Source: Candidatus Poribacteria bacterium
Lineage (GTDB): Bacteria; Poribacteria; WGA-4E; WGA-3G
Direction of reading: 5' to 3'
Assembly: GCA_965205025.1 (NCBI GenBank)
Contig: CBDBFU010000002.1
Coordinates: 64,001-128,000 of the forward strand
DNA: 64,000 nucleotides
Position numbers and translations under genes: made by a program. The notes below the pieces were generated by a model. The model made no database searches, had not been told where the DNA came from, and saw nothing but the letters and a program-made list of their open reading frames with translations. Position 1 is the stretch's first letter. Each line of letters starts with the position of its first letter. Positions 35,182-64,000 of the stretch are shown one piece after another.

Positions 35182-36600
35182 ATGCTACTAACCTTAATAC
35201 GAAAAGAGATGATGCATCATCTCCTGAGTGTACGATTTATCGTACTGCTTCTGATGTGCTTGTTCTTGGTACCACTCACCCTTTCAATAAATTATCAACA
35301 ATACCGTCAAAACCTTGTTGACTACCAAGAAGCAGTGAAACTTGCGAAAATTGAAGAAACCACAGTTAATCCAAGCATGGAACTCAAACCAAAGATGGAA
35401 ATATCTAAACTTTTCCTGAAACCAACACCACTGAGTACATTTGCTAACGGATTAGCGGATGCTCTGCCGAGTTATCTTGGAATGACACGAAATGGTGTAA
35501 CTCATGGACCTCCTGCACTGGTTTCTGCTTCTCTCTCTTATCTATTGGGACATCTTGACTTCCTTTTCCTTGTCGGAACAGTTTTCAGTCTACTTGCGTT
35601 GTTGTTCACTTTCGATGCCGTTGCAGGAGAAAAGGAAGCAGGAACACTACGAATTACATTATCAAATGCACTACCCCGAGATCTATTTTTATGGAGTAAA
35701 TTGATCGGAGGTTATATTGTCTTTGTTGTCCCATTCTTAGTGTCGTTTTTATTTAGTTTACTGTTATTAGTTACACAAGGATTCCCATTTAGTGAACCAG
35801 AGGTATTATCACGTATCTTCAGTCTGTTACTTGTTTCATTACTTTATATAGGTGTCTTTTTTGCAATAGGAACACTTATTTCCACCTACTTAGACAATAC
35901 CAAAACCGCACTCATAATCGCCTTTACTGTTTGGGTATTTACAGTCCTAATTACGCCACGGGTTGGATTTATTGCGGCTAAATTTATTGTTCCAACACAG
36001 ACTTCTCAGAGTGTCTATCTTGAAAAAACCACAGTCCGTGAAAATTATATAGAGGAATTAGAAGAAAAGAAAAAGGATGCCTATAATGCCTTCTGGCGTG
36101 ACAGACCTCAACCGACTACATCTGAAGAACGGTTTTCAATCTATGGTGAATTTGATAAACATATAAAACCGCTTGAGGAGGAATTACGCCAGAAGTACAA
36201 CGACAGTGCAAATGAGATCAATAAGCGATATAAACGTGATCAGTCAAGGCAAGAAGCCGTAGCTGAAACACTCTCCAGAATCACACCAACGTCTTCTCTT
36301 ATCTATGTCGTTACAAACATAACACGGACAGGAAAAGTAAAGAGAACGAACTACTTTCAAGCAGGAGAACGGTATTACGAGGCACTTGATGTAGATCTGT
36401 TCAGTAACCTCAGAGATTACATACCGGTAAGAGTGTTTATACCAACAGATTCTGTCCAAATTACACAACCACCTCCTATAAAAACACTTTCATTGAGTGA
36501 GACAATTCGCTTTTCCTTGATGGATTTACTTTTGTTATGCTTTTTTGCAATCTTACTAACGACAATAGCGTTCTTAAAGTTCTTTCGCTCAGATATCTGA
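35182..36600 (+). CDS. ABC-2 type transporter permease, subfamily A
   Basis: MLLTLIRKEMMHH; FDAVAGEKEAGTLRITLSN; about six TM segments with two large loops; ends FFRSDI. Confidence 0.88.
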   Translation: MLLTLIRKEMMHHLLSVRFIVLLLMCLFLVPLTLSINYQQYRQNLVDYQEAVKLAKIEETTVNPSMELKPKMEISKLFLKPTPLSTFANGLADALPSYLGMTRNGVTHGPPALVSASLSYLLGHLDFLFLVGTVFSLLALLFTFDAVAGEKEAGTLRITLSNALPRDLFLWSKLIGGYIVFVVPFLVSFLFSLLLLVTQGFPFSEPEVLSRIFSLLLVSLLYIGVFFAIGTLISTYLDNTKTALIIAFTVWVFTVLITPRVGFIAAKFIVPTQTSQSVYLEKTTVRENYIEELEEKKKDAYNAFWRDRPQPTTSEERFSIYGEFDKHIKPLEEELRQKYNDSANEINKRYKRDQSRQEAVAETLSRITPTSSLIYVVTNITRTGKVKRTNYFQAGERYYEALDVDLFSNLRDYIPVRVFIPTDSVQITQPPPIKTLSLSETIRFSLMDLLLLCFFAILLTTIAFLKFFRSDI

Positions 36601-36947
36601 GAGGCAGGAATTGTGCCAAATCGCACCTCCATCTTATCACATCAGATTTGGGTTTTCTATCAATTGATACGCAGGTTGTACTTCATGGAAATCCCAATTT
36701 CTCTGGTGTATGCTTACCTATCCGCATGGAACCGGATGTATCTAAGATTGATCTGCCAGACCTCAAGAAACTTTCTATTTCTTCAATTAAGTTTGGTGGA
36801 GATTTCATAGAAGAGTAACTCACCCTCTTTTCCTTTTTCTGCTCAATATGCGTAAGTCCTGACAAATAATCCGCTAAAGTGCATCCGAAAATTGTATAAG
36901 TATAGCCTACGCGGAAATCATCTTGAAGAAACTGGCAAGAATAAACC

Positions 36948-38450
36948 ATGCTCCTAACACTTATCCGTAGAGAGATTCTTGACAATCTAATGACATTTCG
37001 ATTTGCGGCAGCAAGCTTTATTATGCTACTCCTTGTTGTTGCAACGACCGGTGTACTTATTAGAGACTACGAACGTAGGTTAGAAAGTTTTGACACTGCT
37101 GTCAAAAAACATCGCCAAGAAATGATGGATACAACTACCTATTCAGCAGTAGACTTAACGATTGATCGTCCTCCAAATCCTTTGAGCATTTTTAATGTTG
37201 GTTTAGACAAACGATTAGGAAACACACTCGGTATTAGTCACTTTTTCGTACCATCACTTTGGGATGCAGGAAAGCATGGGGCAGATAACCCTTATCTGAA
37301 TCTATTCGCATCTATAGATCTTGTTTTTATTTTTCAGGGAATTCTCAGTCTTTTAGCACTCATCTTTGCCTACGATACACTTGCTGGTGAGCGTGAACGT
37401 GGCACGTTGCGACTTGTACTTACACACCCTGTTCGACATGGTCAAATCATATTTGCCAAATACATGAGTGGTATGATATGTCTATTAATACCTTTACTGA
37501 TGTGTATTCTCCTTGTGTTAATAATGCTAACCACATCTTCATCTGTTTTTCTGAGTGTAGATGATTTTCTACGCATCGGTGGAGTTGTTTTTACATCCTT
37601 CGTTTATCTGTCTCTGTTTTTCCTTATCGGCATGTTAATCTCAGCCCTAACTCGTCGAACGAGTACTGCACTTATGGTTGCTATGTTTGTATGGGGATTT
37701 TTGGTGCTGGTGTATCCAAATCTTATACTTACGGCAGTTGACACTGATCCACACCCAGATACCGAACCTTCTGCTTACAACCAAATCAAGCAGATTTGGG
37801 AAGAATTTGACAAGGATCGACTACAATACCTCAGAAATGATCCTGTAGAAGGTGAAGATTATGATTTTGACCTGTCAGGTGATGGTTACACTTTTCGGGG
37901 TCCTACGGATAATTCATCAAGATTGCTATATTACTACGTTACTGGATTCCACCATAAAAAACTTAAAGAGGAGTCTGAACCTAATGTACCACACGCTCAA
38001 GACTATCATCGCTTTTTCGGGACGCAGGTCACCCACACTGCAGAGCGTATGTGGCTTGTTCGAGAACCCGCTTTGGAGGCATTATATACACAACCCGCAA
38101 AATTGGAACAGATGCTATTAAAGTTTTCTCCTGTTGGTTTGTATGATGCAGCAACCGAAGCTTGGACAGGAACAGACTTGAATGGGTTACAAGATTTTTT
38201 CACAGCAAGTCAAAGGCATCATCAGTCAGTAATGGATTATTATCATGACAATAAGGTATTTGAGTCTCGACTATGGATCGTTGGTGCAGAAGGTGAAATT
38301 GACTGGAATCAAATGCCGCAGTTTTCCTTTCAAAGAAGTGAAATTGGTGTCAATGCCAAACGTGCAGCTCCAGAATTAAGTCTGTTGGTCATGCTTAACC
38401 TGGTCCTGTTCACTATAATCTTTCTGATTTTCGTTCGTAGTGAGGTATAA
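36948..38450 (+). CDS. ABC-2 type transporter permease, subfamily B
   Basis: RREILDNLMTFRF; RPPNPLSIFNVG; AGERERGTLRLVLTHP; ends FVRSEV. Confidence 0.88.
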   Translation: MLLTLIRREILDNLMTFRFAAASFIMLLLVVATTGVLIRDYERRLESFDTAVKKHRQEMMDTTTYSAVDLTIDRPPNPLSIFNVGLDKRLGNTLGISHFFVPSLWDAGKHGADNPYLNLFASIDLVFIFQGILSLLALIFAYDTLAGERERGTLRLVLTHPVRHGQIIFAKYMSGMICLLIPLLMCILLVLIMLTTSSSVFLSVDDFLRIGGVVFTSFVYLSLFFLIGMLISALTRRTSTALMVAMFVWGFLVLVYPNLILTAVDTDPHPDTEPSAYNQIKQIWEEFDKDRLQYLRNDPVEGEDYDFDLSGDGYTFRGPTDNSSRLLYYYVTGFHHKKLKEESEPNVPHAQDYHRFFGTQVTHTAERMWLVREPALEALYTQPAKLEQMLLKFSPVGLYDAATEAWTGTDLNGLQDFFTASQRHHQSVMDYYHDNKVFESRLWIVGAEGEIDWNQMPQFSFQRSEIGVNAKRAAPELSLLVMLNLVLFTIIFLIFVRSEV

Positions 38451-38536
38451 GATGGTTATCAATTATCAGCAGTCAGCATATAGCATGGGATTCATAGAGG
38501 TTAAAAACCAACAACAAGAATAGTGATAACAAGAAT

Positions 38537-39946
38537 ATGATATTACATATAACAAAACGCGAACTCTACGACAATCTAAATAGTCTTCGTTTTGCCCTTG
38601 CAACTATTCTGTTGTTAGCATTGATGATAACCAACGCAATTGGATTCCTCCGTGAACATCCAAAACGGATGCAGCAATATAACGAGTCTGTAAACAAATC
38701 TCTAACGCTAATGAATTCCCATGCAGAAGACAGTTTGTATAAACTGGCACAACAGGGACCTGGAAAACTCTATAAAAAACCATCACCCCTTAGTTTTTGT
38801 GCGGAAGGTGGAGAGCACCTGCTGCCTAACATTATTGAAGGGAGTAGTCCTTTTGTATACTCATCAAACTTGACAGGTGTTTGGAAACTGAAATACCCAA
38901 ATGCTAACGTAAACCTGAAGGATGTCGGACCAGATGTTCCGAAAGTGGATTGGACATTCATTATCGCGTTTGTCATGAGTTTAATTGCACTCTTATTTAC
39001 TTTTGATAGTATCTCTGGTGAACGTGAATACGGTACACTTAGGTTAATGTTGGCAAACTCAGTGCCTCGTCACACCATATTGATCGGGAAGTTCTTAGGA
39101 TCGTTGATAAGTGTCAGTATCCCTTTCACGCTTGCGGTATTAACGAACCTTTTGATGGTTTCAACTGCCCGTAATGTTCACCTGAACATAGAAGCATGGG
39201 AACGATTAGGTATGATCTTCTTTATTGGTCTCCTATACACGTGTTTCTTTCTTGCGTTAGGATTGTTAGTATCTGCGCGTGTTCAACGGAGTTCTGTGAG
39301 TCTGGTGATACTCCTATTGATTTGGGTAACTTTTGTTATTTTTATGCCGAGTACACTTGCATCAATTGCAGGAGAATTCGCACCGGCACTACCCACTGAA
39401 GCAAAATGGATACGACATAACGAAATGCAAGACGAACTCTGGGACAAATACGGTTATATACTCTGGTCAGATGAAGTCGACAGAAAAACGTTAGAAGCGA
39501 AAAGTGGGTTCTTTAAAGAAGATTCCGAAGCCGATGAACAACTAAACCAAGAATACCTAACGAGTAAGTTGGCACAGGTACAACATGCCCGTTCCATTAC
39601 TCGTACCTCCCCTGCTACTCTCCTTCAACATCTTCTTGAATCCTTTGCTGGAACAGGATTTGAACGGCATCTACAATTTGTTGATAATGTGGAAGATTAC
39701 GCACGACAATATCGTGAATTTGTAATTGATATTGATAAATCTGACTCTGAAAGTCTCCATCTTATCGGTGTCCGTGAAGGCATGACGAAGAAAAAGATCT
39801 TGCCATCGGCAGTTCCCAAATTTGATGATACACTGAATCTCAGCAAGGATTTTGACAGTTCGGTGATGGATATACTATTGTTAAGCATGTTTGTTGTAGT
39901 ACTACTGTCTGGTGCTTATCTCGCTTTTGTACGCGTTGAGGTATAA
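38537..39946 (+). CDS. ABC-2 type transporter permease, subfamily C
   Basis: MILHITKRELYDNLNSLRF; FDSISGEREYGTLRL; ESFAGTGFERH; ends AFVRVEV. Confidence 0.88.
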   Translation: MILHITKRELYDNLNSLRFALATILLLALMITNAIGFLREHPKRMQQYNESVNKSLTLMNSHAEDSLYKLAQQGPGKLYKKPSPLSFCAEGGEHLLPNIIEGSSPFVYSSNLTGVWKLKYPNANVNLKDVGPDVPKVDWTFIIAFVMSLIALLFTFDSISGEREYGTLRLMLANSVPRHTILIGKFLGSLISVSIPFTLAVLTNLLMVSTARNVHLNIEAWERLGMIFFIGLLYTCFFLALGLLVSARVQRSSVSLVILLLIWVTFVIFMPSTLASIAGEFAPALPTEAKWIRHNEMQDELWDKYGYILWSDEVDRKTLEAKSGFFKEDSEADEQLNQEYLTSKLAQVQHARSITRTSPATLLQHLLESFAGTGFERHLQFVDNVEDYARQYREFVIDIDKSDSESLHLIGVREGMTKKKILPSAVPKFDDTLNLSKDFDSSVMDILLLSMFVVVLLSGAYLAFVRVEV

Positions 39947-39952
39947 AATAAC

Positions 39953-41458
39953 ATGTTAGCTTCACTTATCAGCAGAGAACTACTTAACAATCTCATGACA
40001 TTCCGATTCGCTGCGGCAATCTTCATCATACTATTACTTGTAGTTGCTAATACAATTGTACTCATCAATGATTATGAGGGACGATTAGATAGCCATAACG
40101 ATTCGGTCAATATGCATAAGCGACAACTACAAGAAATTAAGACATATTCAGCAGGTAATGTACGTATTGATCGTCCTCCAAATCCTTTGAGCATTTTTAA
40201 CGTAGGATTTGATAAACAACTTGGCAATGAGGTACGAATCGCACCTGTATTTGTTCCGTCATTGTGGGATGCTCAGAATCACGGATCTTCTAACCCATTA
40301 ATGGATATGTTTGCTTCAATGGATATTGCATTCATCTTTGAAGTTATACTAAGTCTTCTTGCACTAATTTTTGCTTATGATGCATTTGCAGGAGAATACG
40401 AAACCGGTACATTACGCTTAGTCTTAACGCATCCAGTAAGACGGGGGATTATATTAGTTGCAAAATATATCAGTGCCATGATCTGTCTAATTGTTCCTTT
40501 AATATTGAGTCTACTCCTATCGCTTATTTTACTGACGGTATCCAACCATATCAACTTAAATAGCCAAGATTTTCTTCGTGTTGGCGGAATTATACTAACA
40601 TCTATAATCTATCTTTCCATATTTTACTTAATAGGATTATTGATTTCTGCGGTAACTCGAAGGACAAGTACTGCACTCATGTTGTCAATTTTTGTTTGGG
40701 GTTTCTTAGTGTTAGTTTATCCAAATATGATTCTTGCTATGATCGGTCCTAATCAACCATCGCAGGAACGTCAGACATCTGCTTACAACACTATTGAACA
40801 AATGTGGCTGGAATTCGACAAAGAACGTAAGCAATACTTAGCAACTGACGATTTTCCGGGAGAAGATTGGGGATATGAACTAAGAGGGTGGGGATCCCGT
40901 TCTGCTTATTTAACCGGTTCTCCTCACAACCTGTTTTATAAATACCGTTGCGTCATGAATTTTAGCGGATTTGGCGAGGAAGATGAACCTAAGATCCCAC
41001 ATGCACGGAAGCATTTCCGGTACCTCGTTCCAAAAATTATTGATACTGCAGATAAAACTTGGATAATTCGAAAACCTGCTCTTGAAGATATTTACATTCA
41101 TCCAGCAAAAATGGAAAGAATCTGGTTCAAATTATCTCCTGTTGGTTTGTATGATGCGGCAACAGAAGCTTGGGCAGGTACTGATGTAAATGGCATTAGA
41201 GATTTTTTCAATACTGCCAGACAATATCGAAAACAAGTAATTGATTTTTTCTACGATAAAGATGTGTTTGGATCTCGAGAATGGTTTTCATCTGATAAAG
41301 AGGCAGCGGATTGGAGCGACCTACCACATTTTAACTATCAAAGAGTCGATAGTCACATAAATGCAATGCGCGCATTACCAGATGTATGCTTACTATTCAT
41401 AATAAATATCTTACTTTTTGTTGTAATATTTATGATTTTCGTCAAAAGTGAGGTATAG
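39953..41458 (+). CDS. ABC-2 type transporter permease, subfamily B
   Basis: RELLNNLMTFRF; RPPNPLSIFNVG; EAWAGTD; ends FVKSEV. Confidence 0.88.
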   Translation: MLASLISRELLNNLMTFRFAAAIFIILLLVVANTIVLINDYEGRLDSHNDSVNMHKRQLQEIKTYSAGNVRIDRPPNPLSIFNVGFDKQLGNEVRIAPVFVPSLWDAQNHGSSNPLMDMFASMDIAFIFEVILSLLALIFAYDAFAGEYETGTLRLVLTHPVRRGIILVAKYISAMICLIVPLILSLLLSLILLTVSNHINLNSQDFLRVGGIILTSIIYLSIFYLIGLLISAVTRRTSTALMLSIFVWGFLVLVYPNMILAMIGPNQPSQERQTSAYNTIEQMWLEFDKERKQYLATDDFPGEDWGYELRGWGSRSAYLTGSPHNLFYKYRCVMNFSGFGEEDEPKIPHARKHFRYLVPKIIDTADKTWIIRKPALEDIYIHPAKMERIWFKLSPVGLYDAATEAWAGTDVNGIRDFFNTARQYRKQVIDFFYDKDVFGSREWFSSDKEAADWSDLPHFNYQRVDSHINAMRALPDVCLLFIINILLFVVIFMIFVKSEV

Positions 41459-41459
41459 A

Positions 41460-42887
41460 ATGGTTTGGCATATTGCACTTTTCAATATAATTTGGCGTGA
41501 ACTCTACGACAACCTGAATAGTCTCCGATTTGCGCTTGCAACTGTGTTGCTGCTGGGATTGATGTTGACAAATGCGGTTGTCCATCTTCGGGAACATCCA
41601 GATCGGGTGAAGCAGTATCAAAAAAGTGTCACCGAATACCAGAATCAATTAACATCTCATGCTGAGAACAGTTTATATGACCTTGCGCAAGAGGGGCCTG
41701 GTAATCTATACAAAAAACTATCCGATCTCCGTTTTTGTGCTGAGGGTGGAGAAGCGTTTTTGTCAGAATACGCTGATGGAGGATACAACCGATGGAGTAC
41801 CGACACGTTAAAAAGTTTTTGGATCTTAGCGTATCCAGTAGCAACACCTAATCGGCATAATGTCCGTGTAGTTGTCACCAAAGTTGATTGGAACTTTATA
41901 ATTGGCTATGTCTTAAGTCTTATTGCTCTACTATTCACCTTCGATTCGATCTCAGGAGAACGCGAGCGTGGTACGCTTCGTCTGACGTTAGCAAATTCAA
42001 TTCCGCGGCACTTGTTACTAATTGGCAAGTTTTTGGGGGCACTGATAAGTATTAGCATTCCATTCATACTTTCGATATTGATGAACCTATTGATAATTTC
42101 CACCGCAAGTGGTATTCATCTTCGTCCAGAGATATGGGAACGTATAGGAATTATCTTCTTTATATCTATCCTTTATACTTGTCTTTTTCTGGGGTTGGGT
42201 TTACTCGTATCTGCGAAGGTAAAACGTAGTGCAGTAAGTCTTGTGATACTTCTATTAGTTTGGGTTGTATTTGTGGTATTCATGCCGATTACCCTCGCAT
42301 CAATTGCGGGTAAATATTCATCTTCAGGTCCTACGCATGACTTATGGGAAGTTTCATCAAAAATTTATAAAGAGCAGCGTTCCGAATACTACTCTCGGCT
42401 ACATAATGAAATTGAGGGTTCAATCAAGAGAATAGAATTGGATGGTGAGCATGTCATCAAAGACGCTGAACAGCAGGAACGATTACGTACAGAACAGTTA
42501 TCAGAACGGATTGCTGAAGTGAAACAGGCACGTATTATCACGCGCTTTTCACCTGTCACGATTTTTCAACATCTACTTGAGTCTTTCGCTGGAACAGGTT
42601 TTGAACGACATTTACAGTTCTTAGAGAATGTACAATCTCATGCCCGTGAATTTCGGGAGTTTATCATGGACACAGATAGAGCAGATCCAGATAGTCTCCA
42701 TATCTTAGGGGTTCGCGAGGGGATGTCAAAAAAACCTGTTATTCCTGAATCGGTACCACTGTTTGAAGATACAATCAATCTCAGTAATGATTTTAACCGT
42801 TCATTGATGGATATACTATTGTTAACTCTATTTGTTGTGGTGCTACTGTCTGGTGCTTATCTCGCTTTTGTACGCGTTGAGGTGTGA
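41460..42887 (+). CDS. ABC-2 type transporter permease, subfamily C
   Basis: RELYDNLNSLRF; GPGNLYK; ESFAGTGFERH; ends AFVRVEV. Confidence 0.88.
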   Translation: MVWHIALFNIIWRELYDNLNSLRFALATVLLLGLMLTNAVVHLREHPDRVKQYQKSVTEYQNQLTSHAENSLYDLAQEGPGNLYKKLSDLRFCAEGGEAFLSEYADGGYNRWSTDTLKSFWILAYPVATPNRHNVRVVVTKVDWNFIIGYVLSLIALLFTFDSISGERERGTLRLTLANSIPRHLLLIGKFLGALISISIPFILSILMNLLIISTASGIHLRPEIWERIGIIFFISILYTCLFLGLGLLVSAKVKRSAVSLVILLLVWVVFVVFMPITLASIAGKYSSSGPTHDLWEVSSKIYKEQRSEYYSRLHNEIEGSIKRIELDGEHVIKDAEQQERLRTEQLSERIAEVKQARIITRFSPVTIFQHLLESFAGTGFERHLQFLENVQSHAREFREFIMDTDRADPDSLHILGVREGMSKKPVIPESVPLFEDTINLSNDFNRSLMDILLLTLFVVVLLSGAYLAFVRVEV

Positions 42888-43081: not shown

Positions 43082-44683
43082 ATGCTGCAATCAATCTTAC
43101 AATTGAGAACTTTTTATCACAGACCGTTTCTGTCTTCGAAATTGATAACATTTCTACTCGTTACTACACTATTTGTTGGGTTTCAACTTGCTACACACGC
43201 AAACGCTGGTGAACTGCTACTACAGTTAGAAGATTTCAAAGACCCAGGCAGTTTAACTGTGAAACTTCAAGATGAGCGCGCTGCCGTATCAAAATTCATA
43301 GTCGAACAATTGTCTGACAAAACACAACGACTTTTAAACGAATATGATGGTGTAAACACCCCAACTGTCCCCCTTCAAAAAGCACTACTTTCCGATTTAA
43401 ATCGACTACTCCAAACGTCTCAGTTCTACGACACCCAAAGTTTTGCTAAAATCAAACTTAGTAAGCAGACCCAGCAACTACTTGCGCAAAACCCGCAACG
43501 TGGAGAAACGTTAGTTCGTCTGAATCGTCTTCTTTTAGCAGACACATACCCTTATGAATTAACTGCACCATCCGAACAGCACACCCATGAAGATTCCAAA
43601 GAGATTGAGAAATGTAGAGAGAATTTAAGACAGATAAAACTTGCACTTGAGAAATATCGTGCCAAAGAAAATAATAATCCAAAATGGCTTTCTGAACTGT
43701 CTCCACAATATTTAGACAAAAAAGTACTGCTTTGTCCTGCGGATGCGACAAAGGGTAATCCTGGCGTTTTAACAGTAGACGCCGAGGATCCGACGTTACC
43801 GTGTAGTTATCTCTACGAATTTCGTTCTTCTCAGAAAGTAGGTCAGGATATCTTATTGGAACATCAGGGTGATATGCTACCTATTGTCCGATGTCAGCAT
43901 CACCAGCTCAATTTGAGTGTCAGCGGCAAACTTTATCGTAATGGTCCTCAAAGAATTATTTACAATAACAGCACAGTGAAAATTACGCAAACCTCCTCCG
44001 TGTCAAACCCTTCCTCAGCAAATCTGCCTCCAGAAGTTAAAAAGCAAATGCAGGAAGAACACCTAAAAAAAGGTCATGGAACAACACATACCACTACCAT
44101 TCAACTTGACGGATCTAAGGACTTTCGAGCGCAACTCAAAGCGCAATTCGGTGAGGCGTACCTTGAATCACCGGAGGGAAAAGCACTACTAAAGCAGTTG
44201 GGATCGGCACAACCCACGTCATCAAATCAGGAAATACTGGCAAACCTTAAAGACAAACCGATGCCAGACATTGATTTGACTGATCTATCGGGAAAACCTA
44301 TTAAGTTAGAGGAATTGCGCAGCAAATTCGTTCTTATGAATTTCTTTTCGTTAGACTCTGACACCAGTGGGAAAAAGTTACAACATCTGGAGAAACTGCT
44401 TAAAAACCATAAAACCTCCCAATTGAAGACAATCGGTATTAGCTACAACGATTCTACAAAGGTGATTGATACGTTCAAGAAAAAACATAAACTTTCAATG
44501 CCTATCTGGCGCGCTAAAAACGACCAGATACAAGACCACCTTAATATAGATATGTCTAAATCACAAACGGAACTTATAACGATTCTTTTAAATCAGGAAC
44601 TACTTGTAATAGATGTATTTATAGATTTGAATCCAGAAAACCTTTCAGAAAAGGTTAAACAGCTAATTGAGTCGAAAGAGTAA
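43082..44683 (+). CDS. Exported multidomain protein with Cys-containing middle domain and C-terminal TlpA/AhpC-TSA-like redoxin domain lacking CxxC
   Basis: Signal-like N-terminus; CRENLRQIKLALEKY...LLCPAD..SYLYE..VRC; PDIDLTDLSGKPIKLEELRSKFVLMNFFSLDSDTS. Confidence 0.7.
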   Translation: MLQSILQLRTFYHRPFLSSKLITFLLVTTLFVGFQLATHANAGELLLQLEDFKDPGSLTVKLQDERAAVSKFIVEQLSDKTQRLLNEYDGVNTPTVPLQKALLSDLNRLLQTSQFYDTQSFAKIKLSKQTQQLLAQNPQRGETLVRLNRLLLADTYPYELTAPSEQHTHEDSKEIEKCRENLRQIKLALEKYRAKENNNPKWLSELSPQYLDKKVLLCPADATKGNPGVLTVDAEDPTLPCSYLYEFRSSQKVGQDILLEHQGDMLPIVRCQHHQLNLSVSGKLYRNGPQRIIYNNSTVKITQTSSVSNPSSANLPPEVKKQMQEEHLKKGHGTTHTTTIQLDGSKDFRAQLKAQFGEAYLESPEGKALLKQLGSAQPTSSNQEILANLKDKPMPDIDLTDLSGKPIKLEELRSKFVLMNFFSLDSDTSGKKLQHLEKLLKNHKTSQLKTIGISYNDSTKVIDTFKKKHKLSMPIWRAKNDQIQDHLNIDMSKSQTELITILLNQELLVIDVFIDLNPENLSEKVKQLIESKE

Positions 44684-46430: not shown

Positions 46431-47225
46431 ATGAAACGGAAAATTGTTATGTCAATGTTCACATTTTTGATAATTATGGGATGTGTATTCTTTTTTGGGT
46501 CTCAAGCAAATTCTTTCACTTTCACATTCGGCGAAACGATGGAATTCAAGCAAATACCATCTGACCTCCCAGAAGAATATTCAGGACCGCAAACCGTGCA
46601 AGCATTGATGGATGTCTTTGATGCCGAGTACAATCGGGTCCATTTAAAGACCACGATACGTATATCTGCCGATGAACATAGCCAATCCAGCCAATTTACA
46701 AATAATGAGATAGAGGCACGATATCCGCGGGGCGAGTGGCTTAAAATCTTGTTGGACAAAGGTTTCACCATACAGAATTTCCGAAAATATGCATCCTGTC
46801 TAACGAAAAGGCATATTTTGGCGTTTCTGGAAGATAATCCAGATTTTTGGAAAACCGGGTTCCATGGTATGCCCCTATTTTCTGGTATGCCCGTGACGAA
46901 TGATTGGGAAACTTATAAAGCCGCTTATATTGATAAGTTGGTAAACAAACATCTCAAGAAGATTCGTGAAGCAGAACAGGTTGAACAAGCCAAAACACAA
47001 ACTGAACAAGCTAAAGCACAGGTTGAACGCGCCAAGGTGCTGGCTGAACAAGCAAAGAATAAGTTCAATTCACAACAACTTGAGAACGTTAGGAAGCAGA
47101 TTGAACACGCCAAGGAACAGATTGAGCGTTTACGCGAGACTTTAGAACGTCTTAATGAATCAATGCCTCCTCCCCAAAATCCAAAACAAAAGATGAAAAA
47201 GAAACCTCGCACTATTCAAATATAG
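46431..47225 (+). CDS. Secreted protein with an unnamed domain (shared with the ECF sigma extension) and a coiled-coil tail
   Basis: AAGGAG RBS; signal peptide; YSGPQTVQALM...YPRGEWL...DWETYKAAY; EQAK heptad repeats. Confidence 0.8.
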   Translation: MKRKIVMSMFTFLIIMGCVFFFGSQANSFTFTFGETMEFKQIPSDLPEEYSGPQTVQALMDVFDAEYNRVHLKTTIRISADEHSQSSQFTNNEIEARYPRGEWLKILLDKGFTIQNFRKYASCLTKRHILAFLEDNPDFWKTGFHGMPLFSGMPVTNDWETYKAAYIDKLVNKHLKKIREAEQVEQAKTQTEQAKAQVERAKVLAEQAKNKFNSQQLENVRKQIEHAKEQIERLRETLERLNESMPPPQNPKQKMKKKPRTIQI

Positions 47226-50759: not shown

Positions 50760-50922
50760 GACTTAGTTGAGTTCCTAATCATGGCACTTGTTTTTACGGA
50801 ATTATTTGTAATACGCTGAAAATCAAGGATTTTCATGAATGATCTGGAACGATTAGGAAACTGCTCCTACCGTAGTGTAAAACAATTAATAGAGATGCAC
50901 AAACTGACAAAAGGAATATATT

Positions 50923-51395
50923 ATGAAAAAACATACACTCGTTATTATTCTGATTATTGTTTTCCTGATTGTTGCATGGGTTAGCAGCACTATGATCACG
51001 ATCACCGATGAGATTAATATCGTGGATAGAATAACACATAATCACTACAAAGTTGATCCGAAAGGCCAGTTAATCGGTTAATGCGGAGATTGGCGAGGTT
51101 TCTGTTGAGGAATCAGATCATCACGTGTCTGATATTGATATTGATATCAAAAAGGAATGGAAATCAGGTATGCTGTTTCAACCGAAGTCAAAACGATGGA
51201 TTAAGGATATGCTCAAAGATTTAGAAGTCAAAATCATACGGGACCCACCCAGATGTACGGATTGACGTTAAATTCAAACGCGGAAAGCGACGTTGGAAAA
51301 GGGGATTAAAATGGTTGACGGTTAACATTCAGCTTAGAGTACCGCGTCAATATAAGGTCGTTTCAAAATGCCATGTCCAAGTGAGAGTTTGTATA
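50923..51395 (+). pseudogene. Frameshifted, truncated exported protein resembling the DUF4097 (adhesin-like) N-terminus
   Basis: AAGGA RBS; MKKHTLVIILIIVFLIVAW...YKVDPKGQL, then in shifted frames VNAEIGEVSVEES and LTVNIQLRVPRQY; ends at a MITE terminus. Confidence 0.55.
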
Positions 51396-51460
51396 AATAA
51401 CGTGAGTTTGATAAACGATATCCACGGACAAAGTGGCTTCAACTGATTTTGGAGATAGGA

Positions 51461-51714: not shown

Positions 51715-53132
51715 ATGTTAATGACACTGATTCGGAAAGAGATGATGCATCATATCCTGAGCGTTCGTTTTGTCGCATTGCTTTTGATGTGTCTCTTGCT
51801 TGTTCCTCTTACTCTGCACATTAATTACCGCACTTACCTACAAAACCAGATAAATTACCAGGAATCAGTCAAACTTTCTGGAGCAGAAGATGAGGAAAAG
51901 CCACCAGATACCCCCGCCCCGGGACTTGGAAGTTTCTAAACTCTTTCTTGAACCGACGCCTTTAAGCGTGTTTGCGAAAGGTTTAGAGGAATCCCTTCCG
52001 AGTTATCTTGGCATGACACGCAATGGGGTAAAACAAGGTTCAACTTCAACCGCAGATGCGCCTCTCTCCTCAGCTTTGGGAAACCTTGATTTTCTGTTTG
52101 TCGCCAGTACTGTCTTTAGTCTGCTGGCACTATTATTTACGTTTGATGCTGTCGCCGGTGAAAGAGAAGCAGGCACACTTCGGATTACCTTGGCAAACGC
52201 TCTCTCCCGCGATCTATTTTTGTGGAGCAAACTGATTGGTGGATACATTGTTTTCGTTGTTCCGTTCCTTGTATCGTTTCTCTTAGGTTTGCTCCTAATT
52301 GTCTCACAAGGATTTCCTTTGGGCGAGTCTGACATTTTTTCTACGCGTGCTCAGTTTGACTTTAGTTTCGTTGCTCTACATAGGTGTATTTTTTGCAATA
52401 GGAACAGTAATTTCTACTTTTTTAGATAATTCCAAGACAGCACTCATTGTCGCCTTTACAGTGTGGGTGCTTGCAGTATTAATTACGCCACGCGTTGGAT
52501 TTCTAACCGCTAAACTCATTGCACCGACACGCGCTGTGCAAAGCGTCTATATGGAAAAAAACTGCAATTCGGAAACAATCTCAATAAAGAAAAGGATGCA
52601 ATAGTCGTGAAAAAAATTATTGAAACTTTGGGAACTTCATTTGACTTTAATAAGAATGCCACTAAAAATCGCTGAAATCAGAAAACCGATTGATGCCGAA
52701 TATCGACAGAAATTTCAGGAACAGGTTGAAAAAGTGGAACGCGAGTATGAACGTGAAAAAAAGCGACAAGAATCGGTAGGAGAAACCATTTCACGAATCA
52801 CACCGACGTCTTCGCTCACATATCTCGTCATGAATTTAGCAGAGACCGGAAGAATCAAAAGAAACACCTATTTTCAAACAGGCACTCTTTATTATAACCA
52901 ACTTGAGGATGAGTATTTTAGTGAAATTGCAGATGACCAGTTTGCAGCAATAATGCGATTCACATCAAGTCAACCTTCCGAATCGAAAAAAATCGCTCCA
53001 CCGCCAGACATTATAGAAACCTCTTTATCAGAAACCCTTCGCCACTCCGTCACAGATCTACTCTTGCTCTGCTTCTTAGCCGTTGTGTTGACAACTGTGG
53101 CGTTTCTGAAATTCTTCCGTGTTGATATTTGA
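51715..53132 (+). pseudogene. Subfamily A permease with several frameshifts
   Basis: ORFs 51715..51939, 51890..52429, 52299..52604 and 52620..53132 tile one full-length paralog; breaks lie near C, T and A homopolymers. Confidence 0.85.
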
Positions 53133-53357: not shown

Positions 53358-53394
53358 ATGTATATCGTAAGTCCATTTATTGTGGAGAACTTTG

Positions 53395-54513
53395 ATGATA
53401 AAAGACGATATTGAACTCATTAACAATACTTTGTCCGGCGACGATACAGCTTTCAATTCTTTAGTTGAAAAACACCAGAAGAATATCCACGCTCTCGCGT
53501 GGCAGAAAATAGGGGATTTTCACATTGCCGAAGAAATTACCCAAGATGTTTTCCTACTGGCATATAATAACCTGTCTACACTAAAAGACCCAAATAAGTT
53601 TGACAGATGGATATATGTAATTACGAAGCGACTTTGTACAAACTGGATCGAAAGGAAAAAACCGTCAATGCTATCCTTAGACGCCGCCGATAAAGCAACC
53701 TTGGACAAATCCGCTTTAGCACATTATGTTGCAGAACAACATGAGAAAGAGGCAACTGAGCATTACCGAGAAGTTGTGAATAATCTATTGGAAAAATTAT
53801 CTGATAAAGAACGTACGGTGATAGTACTCTATTACCTTCGTGAAATGTCATACAAAGAAATTAGCAAATTTCTGAATGTGTCTATCAGTGCGATTAAGAG
53901 TAGACTCAGCCGTGCCAGACAACGTTTGAAGGAGGAAGAACTGATGATTTGTGAAACTCTTGGCAGCATCCAGCCACCTATTGACTTAACCGATCATATA
54001 TTTTGTGATAGCATGGAATTCAAAGCGAACACACCATATTTTCAAGACGAGCATACAGAGTATACAGGGCCGCAAACTGTGAAAGCATTGATGAATGCCT
54101 TTGACACCGAGTTTGACAGTTGTATTACAAAAATCAAAGTGGGTATAATTGGAGGCAAATCAAGCAGTCTCACAATTAATGAGATAATTAATGAGATAGA
54201 TAAACGATATCCACGGACAAAGTGGCTTCAACTGATTTTGGAGAATGGACTTACCATAGAAAACTTTATGCATTATGCATCTTGTTTGTCTAAACGGCAT
54301 ATTTTGGCTTTTTTAGAAGACAACCCAGACTTTCAAAAAGTAAACTTTTTCGGTATACCCCCCATTCAAGATGACTGGGAAAAGTATAAAATAGCTTTTG
54401 TCAGAGATGTTATTGCCAGTGAGAAAATGGTTAGAGAACAAGATGGACAAAAGCATAAAGACGAGGTTGCAGACTCCGCATTAAAAAGGGCATTGGAACA
54501 TTGGAACGTTTAA
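53395..54513 (+). CDS. ECF sigma-70 factor with a C-terminal extension
   Basis: Region 2 (AEEITQDVF...FDRWIY.I) and region 4 (MSYKEIS..L.VS...IKSRLSRAR); extension begins YTGPQTVKALM. Confidence 0.9.
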   Translation: MIKDDIELINNTLSGDDTAFNSLVEKHQKNIHALAWQKIGDFHIAEEITQDVFLLAYNNLSTLKDPNKFDRWIYVITKRLCTNWIERKKPSMLSLDAADKATLDKSALAHYVAEQHEKEATEHYREVVNNLLEKLSDKERTVIVLYYLREMSYKEISKFLNVSISAIKSRLSRARQRLKEEELMICETLGSIQPPIDLTDHIFCDSMEFKANTPYFQDEHTEYTGPQTVKALMNAFDTEFDSCITKIKVGIIGGKSSSLTINEIINEIDKRYPRTKWLQLILENGLTIENFMHYASCLSKRHILAFLEDNPDFQKVNFFGIPPIQDDWEKYKIAFVRDVIASEKMVREQDGQKHKDEVADSALKRALEHWNV

Positions 54514-56977: not shown

Positions 56978-57003
56978 TGCAACTTTTCTGGAAAGATTGT
57001 GTA
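56978..57003 (+). promoter_or_regulatory. Putative ECF sigma promoter
   Basis: TGCAAC-N16-TGTA upstream of secreted protein 57090. Confidence 0.45.
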
Positions 57004-57089
57004 AAACAATTAACAAAGGTTTGATGGCACAAAAGTGTGCTTATAAGCGGAGATAGCACTCAATAATTTACACTAACAAAGGAGACATT

Positions 57090-58013: not shown

Positions 58014-58173
58014 TATAATGCCATAGACCTTTACGGACGACTCTGTATTCATTAATATTAATAAAACTTGCACACCTAACGTATTTGCTTGTTTAGTTGT
58101 TATAACCGCCCTGCAATACAGGTTTTGTGAGTCAGGAAGGGTTGTTTTTGCCATCATATATGGAGAATGCTAA

Positions 58174-59595: not shown

Positions 59596-59727
59596 AATAG
59601 AAGACTATTGTATGCCAACAAAACTAACCGTACAGGACATTTTTCTGATTTTTTTTGAAAGAATTATCTCAATAACAAGTGTCGGTATCGTGGATTGTTT
59701 AAGGACAGACCACATCATTAAAATTAA

Positions 59728-59756
59728 TGCAACCTTTATACCATAAAACGCGTCTA
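59728..59756 (+). promoter_or_regulatory. Putative ECF sigma promoter for the ATPase-NEW3-TolC operon
   Basis: TGCAAC-N17-CGTCTA, the canonical ECF AAC...CGT arrangement. Confidence 0.55.
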
Positions 59757-59819
59757 AGCAACATAAGTTCATGTTGCTTGAATATCCAGAATAGAACACA
59801 AGATTACAAGGAGTACCAG

Positions 59820-60554
59820 ATGTTAGAAACGCGCGAACTAACTAAAGTCTATAACGAGGAAGTTTTAGCTGTCAATAAACTAAACCTAAAAGTCGAAGAT
59901 GGGGAAATCTATGTTGTTCTGGGAGCAAACGGGGCAGGCAAAAGCACAACTATATCCATGTTATTGAATTTCATTGAACCCACAAGCGGTACTGCACTGG
60001 TGGGTGACATTGAAATCCCTAAGTTCCCATTGGAAGCAAAAAAACATCTCGCTTATGTTTCTGAAAACGTTGAACTCTACAGGAATTTTACTGCGCGTCA
60101 GAACTTATCCTTTTTCGCTAAATTAGGCGGTAAAAAGAAGGTCTCAAACGATGAGTTGGATGCTACACTCGAAAGAGTTGGATTACCTAAAGAAGCATTT
60201 ACGAGACGAGTAAAGACATTTTCAAAGGGAATGCGTCAACGTCTTGGAATCGCAATTGCCATTATGAAAGACGCACAAGCTGTATTGCTTGATGAGCCAA
60301 CTTCCGGACTTGATCCTAAAGGTGGCGCGGATTTCCTGAATCTATTGCGTGAATTAAAAGAGGAAGGGAAAGCTATCTTTATGTCTACCCACGATATTTT
60401 CCGTGCGAAAGAAATTGCGGATAGAATTGGAATTCTTGTACAGGGAAATCTTGAACAAGAATTATCCAGAGATGAAATCCAAGATGCTGATCTGGAAGCA
60501 CTATATCTGCATTATGTGGCTGGATATGAACCATCAGAAGACCCCAGTCCGTAA
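59820..60554 (+). CDS. ABC transporter ATP-binding protein (ABC-2/DrrA-like)
   Basis: GANGAGKST, FSKGMRQR, LLDEPTSGLD and STH motifs; AAGGAG RBS. Confidence 0.95.
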   Translation: MLETRELTKVYNEEVLAVNKLNLKVEDGEIYVVLGANGAGKSTTISMLLNFIEPTSGTALVGDIEIPKFPLEAKKHLAYVSENVELYRNFTARQNLSFFAKLGGKKKVSNDELDATLERVGLPKEAFTRRVKTFSKGMRQRLGIAIAIMKDAQAVLLDEPTSGLDPKGGADFLNLLRELKEEGKAIFMSTHDIFRAKEIADRIGILVQGNLEQELSRDEIQDADLEALYLHYVAGYEPSEDPSP

Positions 60555-62862
60555 ATCCCAAATATCACTTACTTATCACCAAACCGTAAATTACAATAAT
60601 TGGGGAAAAGCCTTGCGAATTATATTTTTTATACTGGTTTGCGTCGTCTTAGTGGGGATAGCACATCACGTTGTGTTGGCAGTAGAATCTGAAGAACCAG
60701 CAAGCGATGTAAATGCTACAAAAACCAGAGATGAACAAAGCCGTCAAATCCTTATTGAAACTGCACGTTTAGAGATGGAATTGGCGGAAAACCTTATGAA
60801 TAAGAAAAAGGTTGAACTTGATAACTTACGAAAGATGGTTGAAGAGGAAAACAATATCATCACTGTAGCTGAAGTAAACAATGCTGAGGAGGCTTATGAA
60901 AGTGCTGTTTCCGAACATGAAAAAGCTAAACTAAATCTACAGAAAGTAGAATTGGATTCACTCAAGAATGCTTGGCACATTACTGTTGAGAGCACACGGC
61001 TTTATGAATCTCGTGAGGGTCGTGAGATGTTTTCAATTACACTTCAAAACAGTTCATTACCTGTAAAATTAGTTGAGAGTTCCAAAGTTATGGGACGAGA
61101 TATCGTGATTAGTGCACAAATTGATGATATCTTCGTATCAATAAAAGAAAAAGAGGAATTTGGTTCAGGTGGAGCGATTATTGCTGAACCCTACGAACGG
61201 CGTATCAAAACACTCAAAGAGGATGAATCTACTACTTTGGAATTTGAACTTATCAAAGAAGATGTGCGGGATGTTGTTGTCCATTTAAAATACCTTGATA
61301 CAACGGATGAACGGAACATACATCTAAAACAGGAAGATCCATATATCTCTGTAGTTTCAACAAGGCGATATAAAGAAGGTGATCGTAGACGTATTGAAAT
61401 TGTTCTGACTTATGGTGCGGTGAAGGATGAAACCGAAGAGACTAACGTTAACACTGCCCAAGAAATTAACAATGTCTATGTTTCTATCAAAGATGAGAAT
61501 GCAGCCATTATCGGTTTCCCTTATGAATTCCGTATTCCGACACTAAAAGATGGACAAAAAAAGACACTTGATTTTGAATTACGACGCAACGTGGATAGTC
61601 TCACGGTTAATCTAAGATACTTAGATAGGGAATATCCGTATAAAATCCACCTTGAAGAAGACACCCGTCACATTTCAATTCTCAGCGCCAAGAAATTCCG
61701 AATTGAGAACCAAATGATGGTAACTATTCAACTGAAGAATACATCAACAACAGAGGCAATGCCAAGTAATGCTACACCTGAAGAAATTGCTGCAGCAAAT
61801 GAAATTCGCTCTATATATGTCTCTTTACTTGATGCAGTAGACAGCACAAATATCGTTAAACCGTATGAAGAGAAAATACCGGTACTCGGTTACAATGAAA
61901 CAGTAGATTTGACATTCCAACTTCAGAAAGACGTTGATAGTCTTAAGGTTTCAATGAAGTATCCTGAACTTGCTGAACCTGATATGCGTCTGATCTATCT
62001 TCAGAAAGAATCTGCATTGGATGTTGTAAATGTCAGTTCGTTAAGGTTTTCTCAGGAAGGGAATTTGGGTAGCAGTGTAACCTATGATTTAACCTTGGAT
62101 AGGTTGGCAGAAACAGAAAATACCTTCCAGTTGCGTGTCATCAACCTATTGAATCGTCTCTCGTTTGAATTCCAAGACCCGGAAACAAAATCTCGACAAT
62201 CTCAAGTAAAATTTACACAAGAACAATCTAAGCGAAACCTATCATTAATTGTGTATCTACCGGAAGAACTGGATGCGACCTACCTTGACAATACCCTGGA
62301 GTTCTATGTTGCTGTGGTTGATGAAACAGAGGCGAATGAACTTGGAGGAGTTAATAATCGGTTAGATTTACCAGATGAAAAGATTGCCAGTATACAAGGT
62401 GGCGTTGAGCGTTTTGAATTAATTCCAAAAGGAGTACCGGAGATTGAGGTGTCTGTTCAAAATGCGTTTCAGACGATAAAGATCGATGAGCAAGTTAACA
62501 TGACTGCCAAGTTGAAGAACATCGGCACACGCGATCTTATTGATCTTCGTATGATTGTGGATGTTAATCCAGATTGGAAATACACAGTCACACCAGAAGT
62601 CATCAGTTCACTTCAACGGAACGAGGAAAAAGAAATACAACTAACACTAAATCCTCCAGGGGATATTAGTGTGGGTGAATATCAAGCAAAGTTAACTGCT
62701 GAGGTGACCGTTGATAATCGAGAATTTGAAGCACGCGACCGTTCCATCACAATACTGATTGAATCAAAATCACAATTATCAATCACAACAATGTTGGTTG
62801 GTGCATTGATACTTATAATGATTGGTATTGTTATTGTCACAGTCCGAATTAGTCGACGATAA
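60526..62862 (+). CDS. Membrane-anchored extracytoplasmic protein: coiled coil, repeated Ig-like modules, C-terminal NEW3/NPCBM-associated-like domain
   Basis: N-terminal TM; three internal repeats of I..(I/V)(F/Y)VS...PYE..I..L; KNIGTRDL..PDW...PGDISVGEY; C-terminal TM followed by RR; start overlaps the ATPase. Confidence 0.7.
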   Translation: MNHQKTPVRKSQISLTYHQTVNYNNWGKALRIIFFILVCVVLVGIAHHVVLAVESEEPASDVNATKTRDEQSRQILIETARLEMELAENLMNKKKVELDNLRKMVEEENNIITVAEVNNAEEAYESAVSEHEKAKLNLQKVELDSLKNAWHITVESTRLYESREGREMFSITLQNSSLPVKLVESSKVMGRDIVISAQIDDIFVSIKEKEEFGSGGAIIAEPYERRIKTLKEDESTTLEFELIKEDVRDVVVHLKYLDTTDERNIHLKQEDPYISVVSTRRYKEGDRRRIEIVLTYGAVKDETEETNVNTAQEINNVYVSIKDENAAIIGFPYEFRIPTLKDGQKKTLDFELRRNVDSLTVNLRYLDREYPYKIHLEEDTRHISILSAKKFRIENQMMVTIQLKNTSTTEAMPSNATPEEIAAANEIRSIYVSLLDAVDSTNIVKPYEEKIPVLGYNETVDLTFQLQKDVDSLKVSMKYPELAEPDMRLIYLQKESALDVVNVSSLRFSQEGNLGSSVTYDLTLDRLAETENTFQLRVINLLNRLSFEFQDPETKSRQSQVKFTQEQSKRNLSLIVYLPEELDATYLDNTLEFYVAVVDETEANELGGVNNRLDLPDEKIASIQGGVERFELIPKGVPEIEVSVQNAFQTIKIDEQVNMTAKLKNIGTRDLIDLRMIVDVNPDWKYTVTPEVISSLQRNEEKEIQLTLNPPGDISVGEYQAKLTAEVTVDNREFEARDRSITILIESKSQLSITTMLVGALILIMIGIVIVTVRISRR

Positions 62863-62904
62863 AGTCTGAGCGTTGACAACTATTCCCAAAAAATGGAGAT
62901 AGAA

Positions 62905-64000
62905 ATGACCCAAAGGATTACACATCTGTGTGATTATCATAATTTATTTTTTATTTTGCTTGTAAACGCTATGTTCATGTTTAGTGGAATTGGTGATGTA
63001 CCTGGTCAAGAAATGGTATCACTTCAGGCAACGCGTGCCATAGAACTCGCCTTACAAAACAACGAAGCAGTAAAAAAAGCAGAAAAAGTAGTGCAACGAG
63101 CAAAGGCAAACCTCGGCGTATCCAAAGCAGTATACTTACCTCAGGTTGGTATTACCAGTGAATATAAACGGCAAAAAGATGGTGATTTTGAAGATAGAGA
63201 TTATCTCACTCGCGCACAAATGAGTTTTCTCTTTGCACAATTCGGTGAAATACCAGACGGACTTGATAATGCACATGAACAGGTACGTAAGGCAGAAATT
63301 GAGTACGAAAGAGTAAAGAAGGAAACTGTTCATGCTGTGCGAAATCTCTGGCATGACATTACACTTACACAAGAGGAAATTACACAACGACAAGCAATTG
63401 AGGTAGAACTACAAAAGAAGCTAAAGGGAACTCAAATCAAACATAAAGAAAAACGTATTCCTTTTCTTAGTCGACTCAATACGGAACTTGAACTATCTGA
63501 ACAACAACTTTCACTAAACAGACTACAACGTCGACTTGATGTTGACACTGCAGAACTCATCCGTCTTACTGGATTGGATCCACTTGCACAGGTGTCTTTA
63601 TCTCAACCACTCACTGACGACGAAGTGACATTGGAAGAAGCAGTTGAACTTGCACTTACAAATCGACTTGATCTGCAAGACTTACAAGGTGATATTACTC
63701 GGCAAGAACGATTGGTTGCAGAGACAATATGGAACAGATTTCCTGAACTCTCCGCTGAAGCACGTTATAGAGACCTACACCTACTATTGGAACAACACCA
63801 ACAGAATAATACCTGGGATGCAAAGGCATTGTATGATCCTGCGATTCTTAATCGGGAAGGCAATCTACCGAGTCCTTTTGAAATAAACCCTCGAACACAA
63901 GATGGTTGGGAACTTCGTTTCAATATCAATATTCCGTTATATGATGGCAAAAAGACTGAAAACCTTCGTTCAGCAGAACTGGCTGAATTGGAACGTCTCC
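62905..64000 (+). CDS. TolC family outer-membrane efflux protein (runs off the window end; not in ORF track)
   Basis: Open frame from ATG 62905: signal-like N-terminus, AIELALQNN...AKANLGVSKAVYLPQV, TLEEAVELALTNRLDL, FNINIPLYDG. Confidence 0.85.
   Translation, partial: MTQRITHLCDYHNLFFILLVNAMFMFSGIGDVPGQEMVSLQATRAIELALQNNEAVKKAEKVVQRAKANLGVSKAVYLPQVGITSEYKRQKDGDFEDRDYLTRAQMSFLFAQFGEIPDGLDNAHEQVRKAEIEYERVKKETVHAVRNLWHDITLTQEEITQRQAIEVELQKKLKGTQIKHKEKRIPFLSRLNTELELSEQQLSLNRLQRRLDVDTAELIRLTGLDPLAQVSLSQPLTDDEVTLEEAVELALTNRLDLQDLQGDITRQERLVAETIWNRFPELSAEARYRDLHLLLEQHQQNNTWDAKALYDPAILNREGNLPSPFEINPRTQDGWELRFNINIPLYDGKKTENLRSAELAELERL

Follow-up and report, generated by a model that had tools for sequence, protein, structure and literature searches.

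Gene organization of the locus

The subject of this work is an array of ATP-binding cassette (ABC) permease genes, and the three genes behind it, in a genome of the sponge symbiont Candidatus Poribacteria (assembly GCA_965205025.1, 95% complete). The genes lie in positions 64,001 to 128,000 of contig CBDBFU010000002.1, a stretch of 64,000 nucleotides hereafter called the window, in whose own numbering all coordinates are given. The array holds 14 permease copies over 24.4 kb, of which 10 are intact, one is frameshifted and three are fragments. The intact open reading frames (ORFs) of 469-511 amino acids (aa), taken from the ORF list, run on the plus strand from 35182 to 59595; the frameshifted copy and the fragments were located by tblastn. 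At the 3' side follow one ABC ATPase gene, one gene for a protein with NEW3 and immunoglobulin-like (Ig) domains, and one gene of the outer-membrane efflux protein (OEP)/TolC family (Table 1). An earlier note on this DNA had read the array as 10 intact, one frameshifted and three fragmentary co-oriented copies over about 24 kb in front of one ATPase, one NEW3-like protein and TolC. Its count proved exact and its reading of the downstream genes was borne out. The reading that we favour, with moderate confidence, is a tripartite ABC exporter in which alternative permease dimers plug into a shared motor, adaptor and channel.

The array also carries three genes of a family termed X here, one of them fused to an extracytoplasmic function (ECF) sigma domain, and one redoxin gene. 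The redoxin gene is absent at the other mapped loci, has five paralogs elsewhere in the genome and is probably a passenger. The decayed small gene of family F9 corresponds to a gene that sits after the ortholog of the third clade C permease in relatives. The frameshifted permease copy owes its state to three 1-base differences, which are either real or assembly errors. Neither the ORFs of the window nor the domain scan revealed a recombinase gene in the array. Because the intact proteins are only 23-76% identical and multi-copy arrays recur in relatives, single-contig genomes among them, the array is not an artefact of collapsed strains, a danger that the earlier note had raised. Contigs of sequencing runs X1 and X2 match several pieces of the array without any difference.

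Table 1. Features of the permease array and of the genes downstream of it.
Feature	Position	Strand	Evidence
Permease clade A, intact, 472 aa	35182..36600	+	PF12679, 113 bits; clade by identity and tree
Permease clade B, intact, 500 aa, pair 1	36948..38450	+	Model pLDDT 87.5; NosY fold Z 27.6
Permease clade C, intact, 469 aa, pair 1	38537..39946	+	PF12679; DUF3526, 38 bits
Permease clade B, intact, 501 aa, pair 2	39953..41458	+	ORF, identity, tree
Permease clade C, intact, at most 479 aa (start uncertain), pair 2	41448..42887	+	ORF, identity, tree
533-aa protein, N-terminal hydrophobic segment and C-terminal AhpC/redoxin domain	43082..44683	+	Domain scan
Permease clade A, intact, 483 aa	44787..46238	+	ORF, identity
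Family X, signal-peptide-like start, domain without known family, coiled coil	46431..47225	+	Homology within genomes
Clade A permease fragment, first 52 codons	47388..47543	+	tblastn
Permease clade B, intact, 491 aa, pair 3	47564..49039	+	ORF, identity, tree
Permease clade C, intact, 511 aa, pair 3	49158..50693	+	ORF, domain scan, tree
Decayed small gene (about 150 aa; family F9), limits approximate	50920..51400	+	Read by eye against F9
Clade A permease fragment, last 33 codons	51461..51562	+	tblastn
Clade A permease, frameshifted	51715..53132	+	tblastn; intact in G004 at 96% DNA identity
ECF sigma-70 domain fused to X domain, 377 aa, no transmembrane segment found	53380..54513	+	Domain scan
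Clade A permease fragment, first 148 codons	54849..55292	+	tblastn; also in G004
Permease clade A, intact, 472 aa	55487..56905	+	ORF, identity
Family X protein, 307 aa	57090..58013	+	Homology within genomes
Permease clade A, intact, 473 aa	58174..59595	+	ORF, identity
Single ABC ATPase, 244 aa	59820..60554	+	Walker A, signature FSKGMRQR, Walker B and H-loop intact in sequence
Putative adaptor (NEW3/Ig protein), 778 aa	about 60526..62862	+	Domain scan, model, profile match
TolC/OEP-family channel, 473 aa	62893..64000, ends at 64314 (314 bases past the window)	+	Domain scan

One ATPase gene and many permease genes

Twenty relatives were searched for the ATPase. Exactly one ortholog (84-93% identical, next best match at most 39%) was present in each of the 14 genomes that bear permeases, and none in the six genomes without the module, one of which (G026) has a single weak permease match. 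The Poribacteria genomes hold one ATPase, one NEW3 protein and one TolC against 4-20 intact permeases. The extreme case is G017, a single contig, where 20 intact permeases at six loci are accompanied by one ATPase. No ABC ATPase occurred in the fetched stretch of 22 of the 42 mapped permease-bearing regions; of these 22, 14 come from near-complete assemblies and are clearly distant loci, and contig ends account for some of the others. The window genome contains no further permease of the subfamily and no second close ATPase (the next one is 36% identical). The earlier note had proposed many permeases on a shared motor and channel and had named additional dedicated ATPases as the finding that would speak against it. 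None turned up in the window genome, the permease-bearing Poribacteria relatives hold one cognate ATPase each, and their gene counts support the proposal. In Poribacteria these counts would require one nucleotide-binding domain (NBD) to serve several sets of transmembrane domains (TMDs), from which we infer that the motor is physically shared.

In G006 the ATPase lies 1.4 Mb from the adaptor-TolC pair, each with permeases of its own (C1, L034-L036); the core itself is therefore separable.

Permease fold and family

The model of the clade B permease at 36948, with a predicted local distance difference test (pLDDT) of 87.5, has six helices and matches NosY with Z 27.6 and a root-mean-square deviation of 2.6 over 254 residues. 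Its top 12 matches (NosY, ABCA4, ABCG and PmtD among them) are all type V. Every one of the 10 intact copies scores 97-118 bits against PF12679, where the cut-off is 27.2. The permeases are NosY-like type V (ABC-2) TMDs, and the NBD that accompanies them is intact. Two insertions that NosY does not have form, in the model, a helical periplasmic stalk and a beta-hairpin at about residues 311-339, and it is at this hairpin that the paralogs differ most. Clade C copies exceed the DUF3526 cut-off as well. No match to the MacB_PCD or FtsX Pfam families was found in the four copies scanned, and MacB matches the permease model at background level (Z 7.9), which places the permeases outside type VII. 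The profiles of other ABC-2 systems score far below their cut-offs: GldF (TIGR03518) gives 31-35 bits against 288.5, TIGR03522 gives 144 against 402.6, and PmtD gives 28 against 220. No NosD, NosZ or NosL match was found among the proteins of the locus that were scanned; a single NosD-like beta-helix gene occurs at one distant locus, among 31 proteins scanned.

Fixed permease pairs and clade A

The earlier note treated the copies as one series, a view that has to be corrected to three old clades. The ten intact proteins split into clades A (four), B (three) and C (three), with identities of 57-76%, 46-54% and 42-60% within the clades and 23-30% between them. For the tree, 16 of 210 ORFs that fell outside 430-560 aa were dropped beforehand. 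In loci from 20 of 21 genomes, a C gene comes directly after 72 of the 75 intact B genes; the copies of G038, which belong to other clades, were excluded from the pair counts. The subtree of C mirrors that of B, and group for group the two agree in their patterns of presence. Over the 72 adjacent pairs the pairwise distances of B and C have a correlation of 0.96. When partners were shuffled within genomes the correlation was 0.14 (maximum 0.53), and none of 1000 shufflings reached the observed value. The fixed adjacency and the matched distances point to B+C heterodimers, with B and C as partners that co-evolve. The free interchange of permeases suggested in the earlier note is therefore not borne out for these two clades.

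Clade A genes occur singly or in runs and turn over; all four broken copies of the window belong to this clade. Another A gene precedes 13 of the 40 intact A genes, and a family X gene lies directly upstream of 19 of the 40, as compared with one of the 75 B genes. The three X genes of the window (46431-47225, 57090-58013, 53380-54513) share a domain of about 100 aa without known family, which is joined to a signal-like start or to the ECF sigma domain. The family has 33 copies, all in the main arrays of one genus and tied to clade A permeases. Its domain gave no usable match in the ESM Atlas, and the family was not found in 80 distant loci from other phyla. The ECF sigma domain of 53380-54513 is matched by 78 ORFs of the genome, and many such ECF sigma ORFs are fused to large C-terminal regions of 900-1400 aa (in relatives WD40, peptidase and others).

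The adaptor-like protein and TolC

The model of the NEW3/Ig protein (pLDDT 88.3, predicted template-modelling score 0.58) shows in order a signal-like helix, a two-helix hairpin (residues 45-83 and 91-125), about five beta-sandwich (Ig-like) domains of which the last is NEW3, and a C-terminal transmembrane (TM) helix, which is conserved and ends in basic residues. The N-terminal helix reads, by sequence, as a cleavable signal. Periplasmic adaptor proteins are anchored at the N-terminus. A profile of 12 distant relatives of the protein gave weak matches, confined to the hairpin, to CmeC (E 4e-4), to MacA and MexA (E 0.008-0.016) and to ZneB; the MexA match covers only profile positions 40-93. 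Lipoyl and beta-barrel domains were found neither by profile search nor by family scan, and no HlyD or lipoyl family appeared among 25 of 27 families for 60 adaptor members. In canonical adaptors, according to PMC4446572, lipoyl, beta-barrel and membrane-proximal domains flank the hairpin. With the hairpin present and the lipoyl and beta-barrel domains missing, the protein falls outside the adaptor family, though it may work in an adaptor-like manner. For the adaptor-like nature suggested in the earlier note, the weak hairpin matches to MexA and MacA are a point in favour. Foldseek with the model returned only generic multi-Ig matches (TM-score at most 0.2), and the ESM Atlas only generic NEW3 clusters. 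Complex prediction with two TolC chains and two hairpins, which is below the 6:3 assembly, scored 0.02 against a mark of 0.32.

Named homologs of the NEW3 protein, which reach 96% identity, come from Ca. Poribacteria. For this protein and for TolC, close orthologs are single-copy, and both are found together in 22 of 40 relatives. One genome (G011) has a distant adjacent NEW3-TolC pair, and 17 have neither gene, 16 of them without a permease match; the 40 genomes are kin, and the co-occurrence does not amount to 40 independent tests. Three candidate gene fusions were discarded: an apparent adaptor-permease fusion at L096 is really an off-frame extension, and the long ORFs L131 and L068 each match one family only.

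Conservation, selection and cassette turnover

The GE(R/K)E.GTLR loop is the most conserved region of the permeases, with a mean share of the top residue of 0.63 as compared with 0.22 in the second large loop (225 permeases from several phyla). This cytoplasmic GE.E.GTL loop is likely the ATPase contact. Between paralogs of the same clade in the window, the core of TM2-5 is 62-83% identical and the second loop 36-46%. Conserved TM segments and GE loop next to a divergent second loop had been seen in the earlier note, and both measures agree with it. Between orthologs of different species the loops are 66-93% identical (second loop 68-93%; 22 groups), figures that are favoured by the groups having been cut from the same tree. 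The ratio of nonsynonymous to synonymous rates (dN/dS) was computed for groups with at least four members and from pairs with a proportion of synonymous differences (pS) below 0.45. It is 0.05-0.20 in TM segments and 0.06-0.50 in loops, and stays below 1 in all 22 ortholog groups; the values are pooled and not site-wise, so that selection at single sites could go unseen. The clade A paralogs are near synonymous saturation, and the copies are therefore old. The loops are thus under purifying selection within ortholog groups, which speaks for stable specialisations and against the diversifying contingency locus of the earlier note. Nor is there support here for the possible role in symbiosis or phage-receptor variation raised there; the module also occurs in lineages from sediments and other non-sponge sources, and the loops face the periplasm.

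What does change fast between close relatives is the content and order of the cassettes. G004, with a TolC that is 100% identical, has its cassettes arranged differently. The gene frameshifted here is intact there and lies directly before the ATPase, a joint that is also found on a contig of run X4. No repeat is common to all cassette borders of the array; repeats in the spacers either track duplications of A+X or are short genome-wide elements. The array is a repertoire of stable specialisations of which the set and the order vary. Just upstream, at 34364-34755, the intergenic sequence holds highly repeated elements, with 503 BLAST pieces across the genome.

Range in other phyla

Relatives of the adaptor form 410 clusters at 50% identity, mostly of about 500 aa. 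A single motif pattern yielded 132 distant loci, of which the best 80 were used and are thus a biased sample. By their record names they come from Aminicenantes, Latescibacterota, KSB1, Gemmatimonadota, Ignavibacteria, Bacteroidota, Calditrichota and others. A permease is present in 67 of the 80, a cognate ATPase in 62, at least three permeases in 31 and TolC in 24; TolC stands upstream in other phyla and downstream in Poribacteria. B-like and C-like clades reach other phyla, where further pair types occur, and the adaptor hairpin is kept in all 72 full-length distant relatives. Ten distant genomes searched whole contained 2-30 permease matches and one or two ATPases. A sigma-54 activator gene occurs in 27 of the 80 loci. 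In about ten, the TolC or adaptor gene is preceded by a -24/-12 match; no such match was found in the window. These linked activators and promoter matches suggest, at the level of sequence, that the module is inducible.

Genes beside satellite permease pairs encode S9 and M61 peptidases, penicillin amidase, sigma fusions and transposases, with no common substrate. At a KSB1 locus (L090:5117-9943) the module is followed by genes for a phosphoesterase, a B12 radical SAM protein and a PqqD-SPASM radical SAM protein, a layout that resembles a modified-peptide cluster and is a possible substrate lead. In the Latescibacterota genome G043 (locus L102), seven loci hold 30 permease matches and there are two ATPases; none of these lies in the 21 kb fetched around its adaptor gene. 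A conserved 231-aa family, F14, stands beside B+C pairs at six loci (for example L006:11575-12267, minus strand) and does not occur in the window. We take it, by eye, to be like a lone Cas7/Csf2-type RAMP with a C-terminal glycine-rich loop; it had no Pfam match at 1e-5, and no other cas gene was recognised next to it.

Other features of the window

On the minus strand, 7376-18358 encodes a protein of 3660 aa that is made of Ig-like repeats and has a FlgD-Ig domain at its C-terminus, adjoining a UPF0164/PorV-like gene (6365-7339); from its sequence it looks like a giant surface adhesin. A defence-like island at 21624-30954 contains a type III restriction gene split into two overlapping ORFs, a ParA-like ATPase, a HEPN (RiboL-PSP) protein, a DNA methyltransferase-like gene read by eye and an AAA/DUF4435 protein.

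Discussion

In the exporter that we favour, one ATPase dimer would power any of several alternative type V transmembrane dimers, namely the three B+C heterodimers of fixed partners and at most four units of A type, which may be homodimers or A+A' pairs. The tall periplasmic domain of each dimer, with a tip of its own, would pick a substrate class from the periplasm or from the inner membrane's outer leaflet. The Ig stalk, anchored in the inner membrane and presumably in contact with the permease, would raise the MexA-like hairpin to the dedicated TolC, through which the substrate would leave in the manner of MacAB-TolC, by a machine built from unrelated parts. The repertoire would evolve by gain, loss and reordering of whole cassettes while the modules are conserved. 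As to the substrate, amphipathic peptides, lipids or small proteins, with an inducible role in envelope protection, are our guess.

Several observations weigh against such an exporter. Only 13 of 44 long loci outside Poribacteria have an adjacent TolC, and the TolC subfamily was not found in three of five distant genomes, two of them rich in permeases, in which other OEP genes are present. Two cognate ATPases occur in two of the ten distant genomes and in five of the 80 loci, and three of the ten have just two permease matches; sharing is therefore not universal. The matches at the hairpin are weak, and of a kind that short coiled coils readily produce; moreover, the profile was built from relatives outside Poribacteria, and the hairpin tip in the window is atypical. 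The genes neighbouring the permeases point to no single substrate. Finally NosDFY, the closest solved relative, acts on a periplasmic partner and is not known to involve a TolC.

This last point leads to the main rival, which we regard as unlikely: a NosDFY-like mechanical system with a shared ATPase and no transport through TolC, in which each kind of permease acts on periplasmic partners of its own, clade A on X and B+C on peptidases or others, and the Ig stalk is a scaffold or an outer-membrane tether. NosY is indeed the closest structure by sequence and by fold, X is placed before many clade A genes and hardly ever before clade B genes, and TolC is not adjacent in most distant loci. However, a single-copy TolC and the adaptor co-occur without exception in the 22 Poribacteria relatives with a close ortholog of at least one of the two, and the adaptor hairpin is universally kept. 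Moreover, no conserved periplasmic partner stands beside the B+C pairs, and X was not found in the 80 distant loci.

We consider it improbable that several permease dimers sit at once around an oligomeric adaptor in one large machine, with the array supplying subunits and not alternatives. The co-oriented, operon-like layout and the recurrence in other phyla of combinations of different pair types would fit, but the matches number from 2 to about 30 per genome and ortholog groups are gained and lost independently, so that no fixed stoichiometry fits. Still less credible is an importer or scavenger related to DUF3526 permeases in which variable loops take the place of solute-binding proteins. 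C-type copies do pass the DUF3526 cut-off, and shared ATPases are documented for importers (PMC7658222), but neither a solute-binding protein nor a TonB-dependent receptor is present at the locus in the window, the outer-membrane protein linked to it is of OEP/TolC type, and the fold is the type V exporter fold. A contingency locus, whose cassettes would be variants of a single function that diversified to counter phage or host immunity, is largely refuted and very improbable. Loops that diverge more than TM segments, clade A copies that decay and reorder between close strains, and two A copies that look mosaic by nearest neighbour would speak for it; against it stand the dN/dS values of both loops, the age of the A paralogs, the periplasmic position of the loops and an array without recombinase gene. 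Least probable of all is an array with a single functional pair that is otherwise debris of neutral duplication or an artefact of collapsed strains in the assembly, for although four of the 14 copies are broken and the source is a metagenome-type assembly of 33 contigs, the paralogs are widely diverged, their orthologs across species are under purifying selection, arrays exist in single-contig genomes, and the X1 and X2 contigs agree with several pieces of the array.

The exporter reading also has a wider form, which we offer as a possibility that is doubtful at present: an ABC-driven machine for trans-envelope export that would be a third structural class and would occur across many uncultured phyla. 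It would combine type V TMDs bearing tall receptor-like periplasmic domains with an inverted adaptor, of about 500 aa in most phyla and about 780 aa in Poribacteria, which its Ig stalk fits in length to the periplasm. Up to ten or more TMD dimers encoded across the genome would form a plug-in library in which every dimer is a selectivity cartridge for a secreted peptide or protein of its own, and they would compete for one motor and one channel. To the known tripartite assemblies the exporter would add a type V motor, a hairpin-only adaptor and ATPase sharing on the export side. A shared motor would explain the lone permeases without ATPase in Poribacteria and Latescibacterota genomes. The fixed B+C pairs with matched trees are a natural set for the study of heterodimer specificity and substrate choice at a constant motor interface, and the smallest versions (one ATPase, two permeases, adaptor and TolC) are small enough for expression and structure solution. 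A description of the module was not found in literature searches, whose scope left out most subscription journals and all supplements.

Among known systems, NosDFY(L) of nitrous oxide reductase maturation (PDB 7o0y) shares the TMD fold, PF12679 and a separate short NBD. NosY, in contrast, has 276 aa, is single-copy and lacks the two large periplasmic insertions, and the present locus has no nosD, nosZ or nosL. NosDFY is not known to have a TolC or an adaptor. MacAB-TolC (type VII) is alike in its ABC motor, periplasmic TMD domain, hairpin adaptor and TolC, and is the likely working principle; its TMD fold is different, whereas here we find a hairpin-only adaptor, an Ig stalk, a C-terminal anchor and many TMD pairs per motor. 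PmtABCD, GldAFG and LanFEG, ABC-2 exporters of peptides and their relatives, resemble the module in the ABC-2 TMD and in related NBDs, but are without large periplasmic domain, adaptor or array. LanEG is a heteromeric TMD pair. A normal adaptor accompanies the ABC-2-like E. coli systems of the YbhFSR type. In the accessible part of a 2021 review, only type IV and type VII ABC partners are named for tripartite assemblies (PMC8277102). Given the YbhFSR-type systems, the type V gap is therefore narrower than that review implies.

Two further systems bear on the array and on the sharing. The 'duplicated orphan permease' (ADOP) proteins have ten paralogs in Psychroflexus torquis, highly translated and of unknown function (PMC3914696). 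ADOP arrays resemble ours as clustered old paralogous permeases with few ATPases, but ADOP is of the MacB/FtsX type, whereas here the TMD is NosY-type, the heterodimer pairs are fixed and the adaptor is non-canonical; the ADOP arrays are a parallel solution in an unrelated family. The multitask ATPases MsmX and MsmK show that one NBD can energise several TMD sets encoded elsewhere, a trait that PMC7658222 describes as uncommon and that is documented mainly for sugar importers. They serve type I sugar importers with binding proteins, whereas the ATPase of the present module would be shared among TMDs of an exporter fold.

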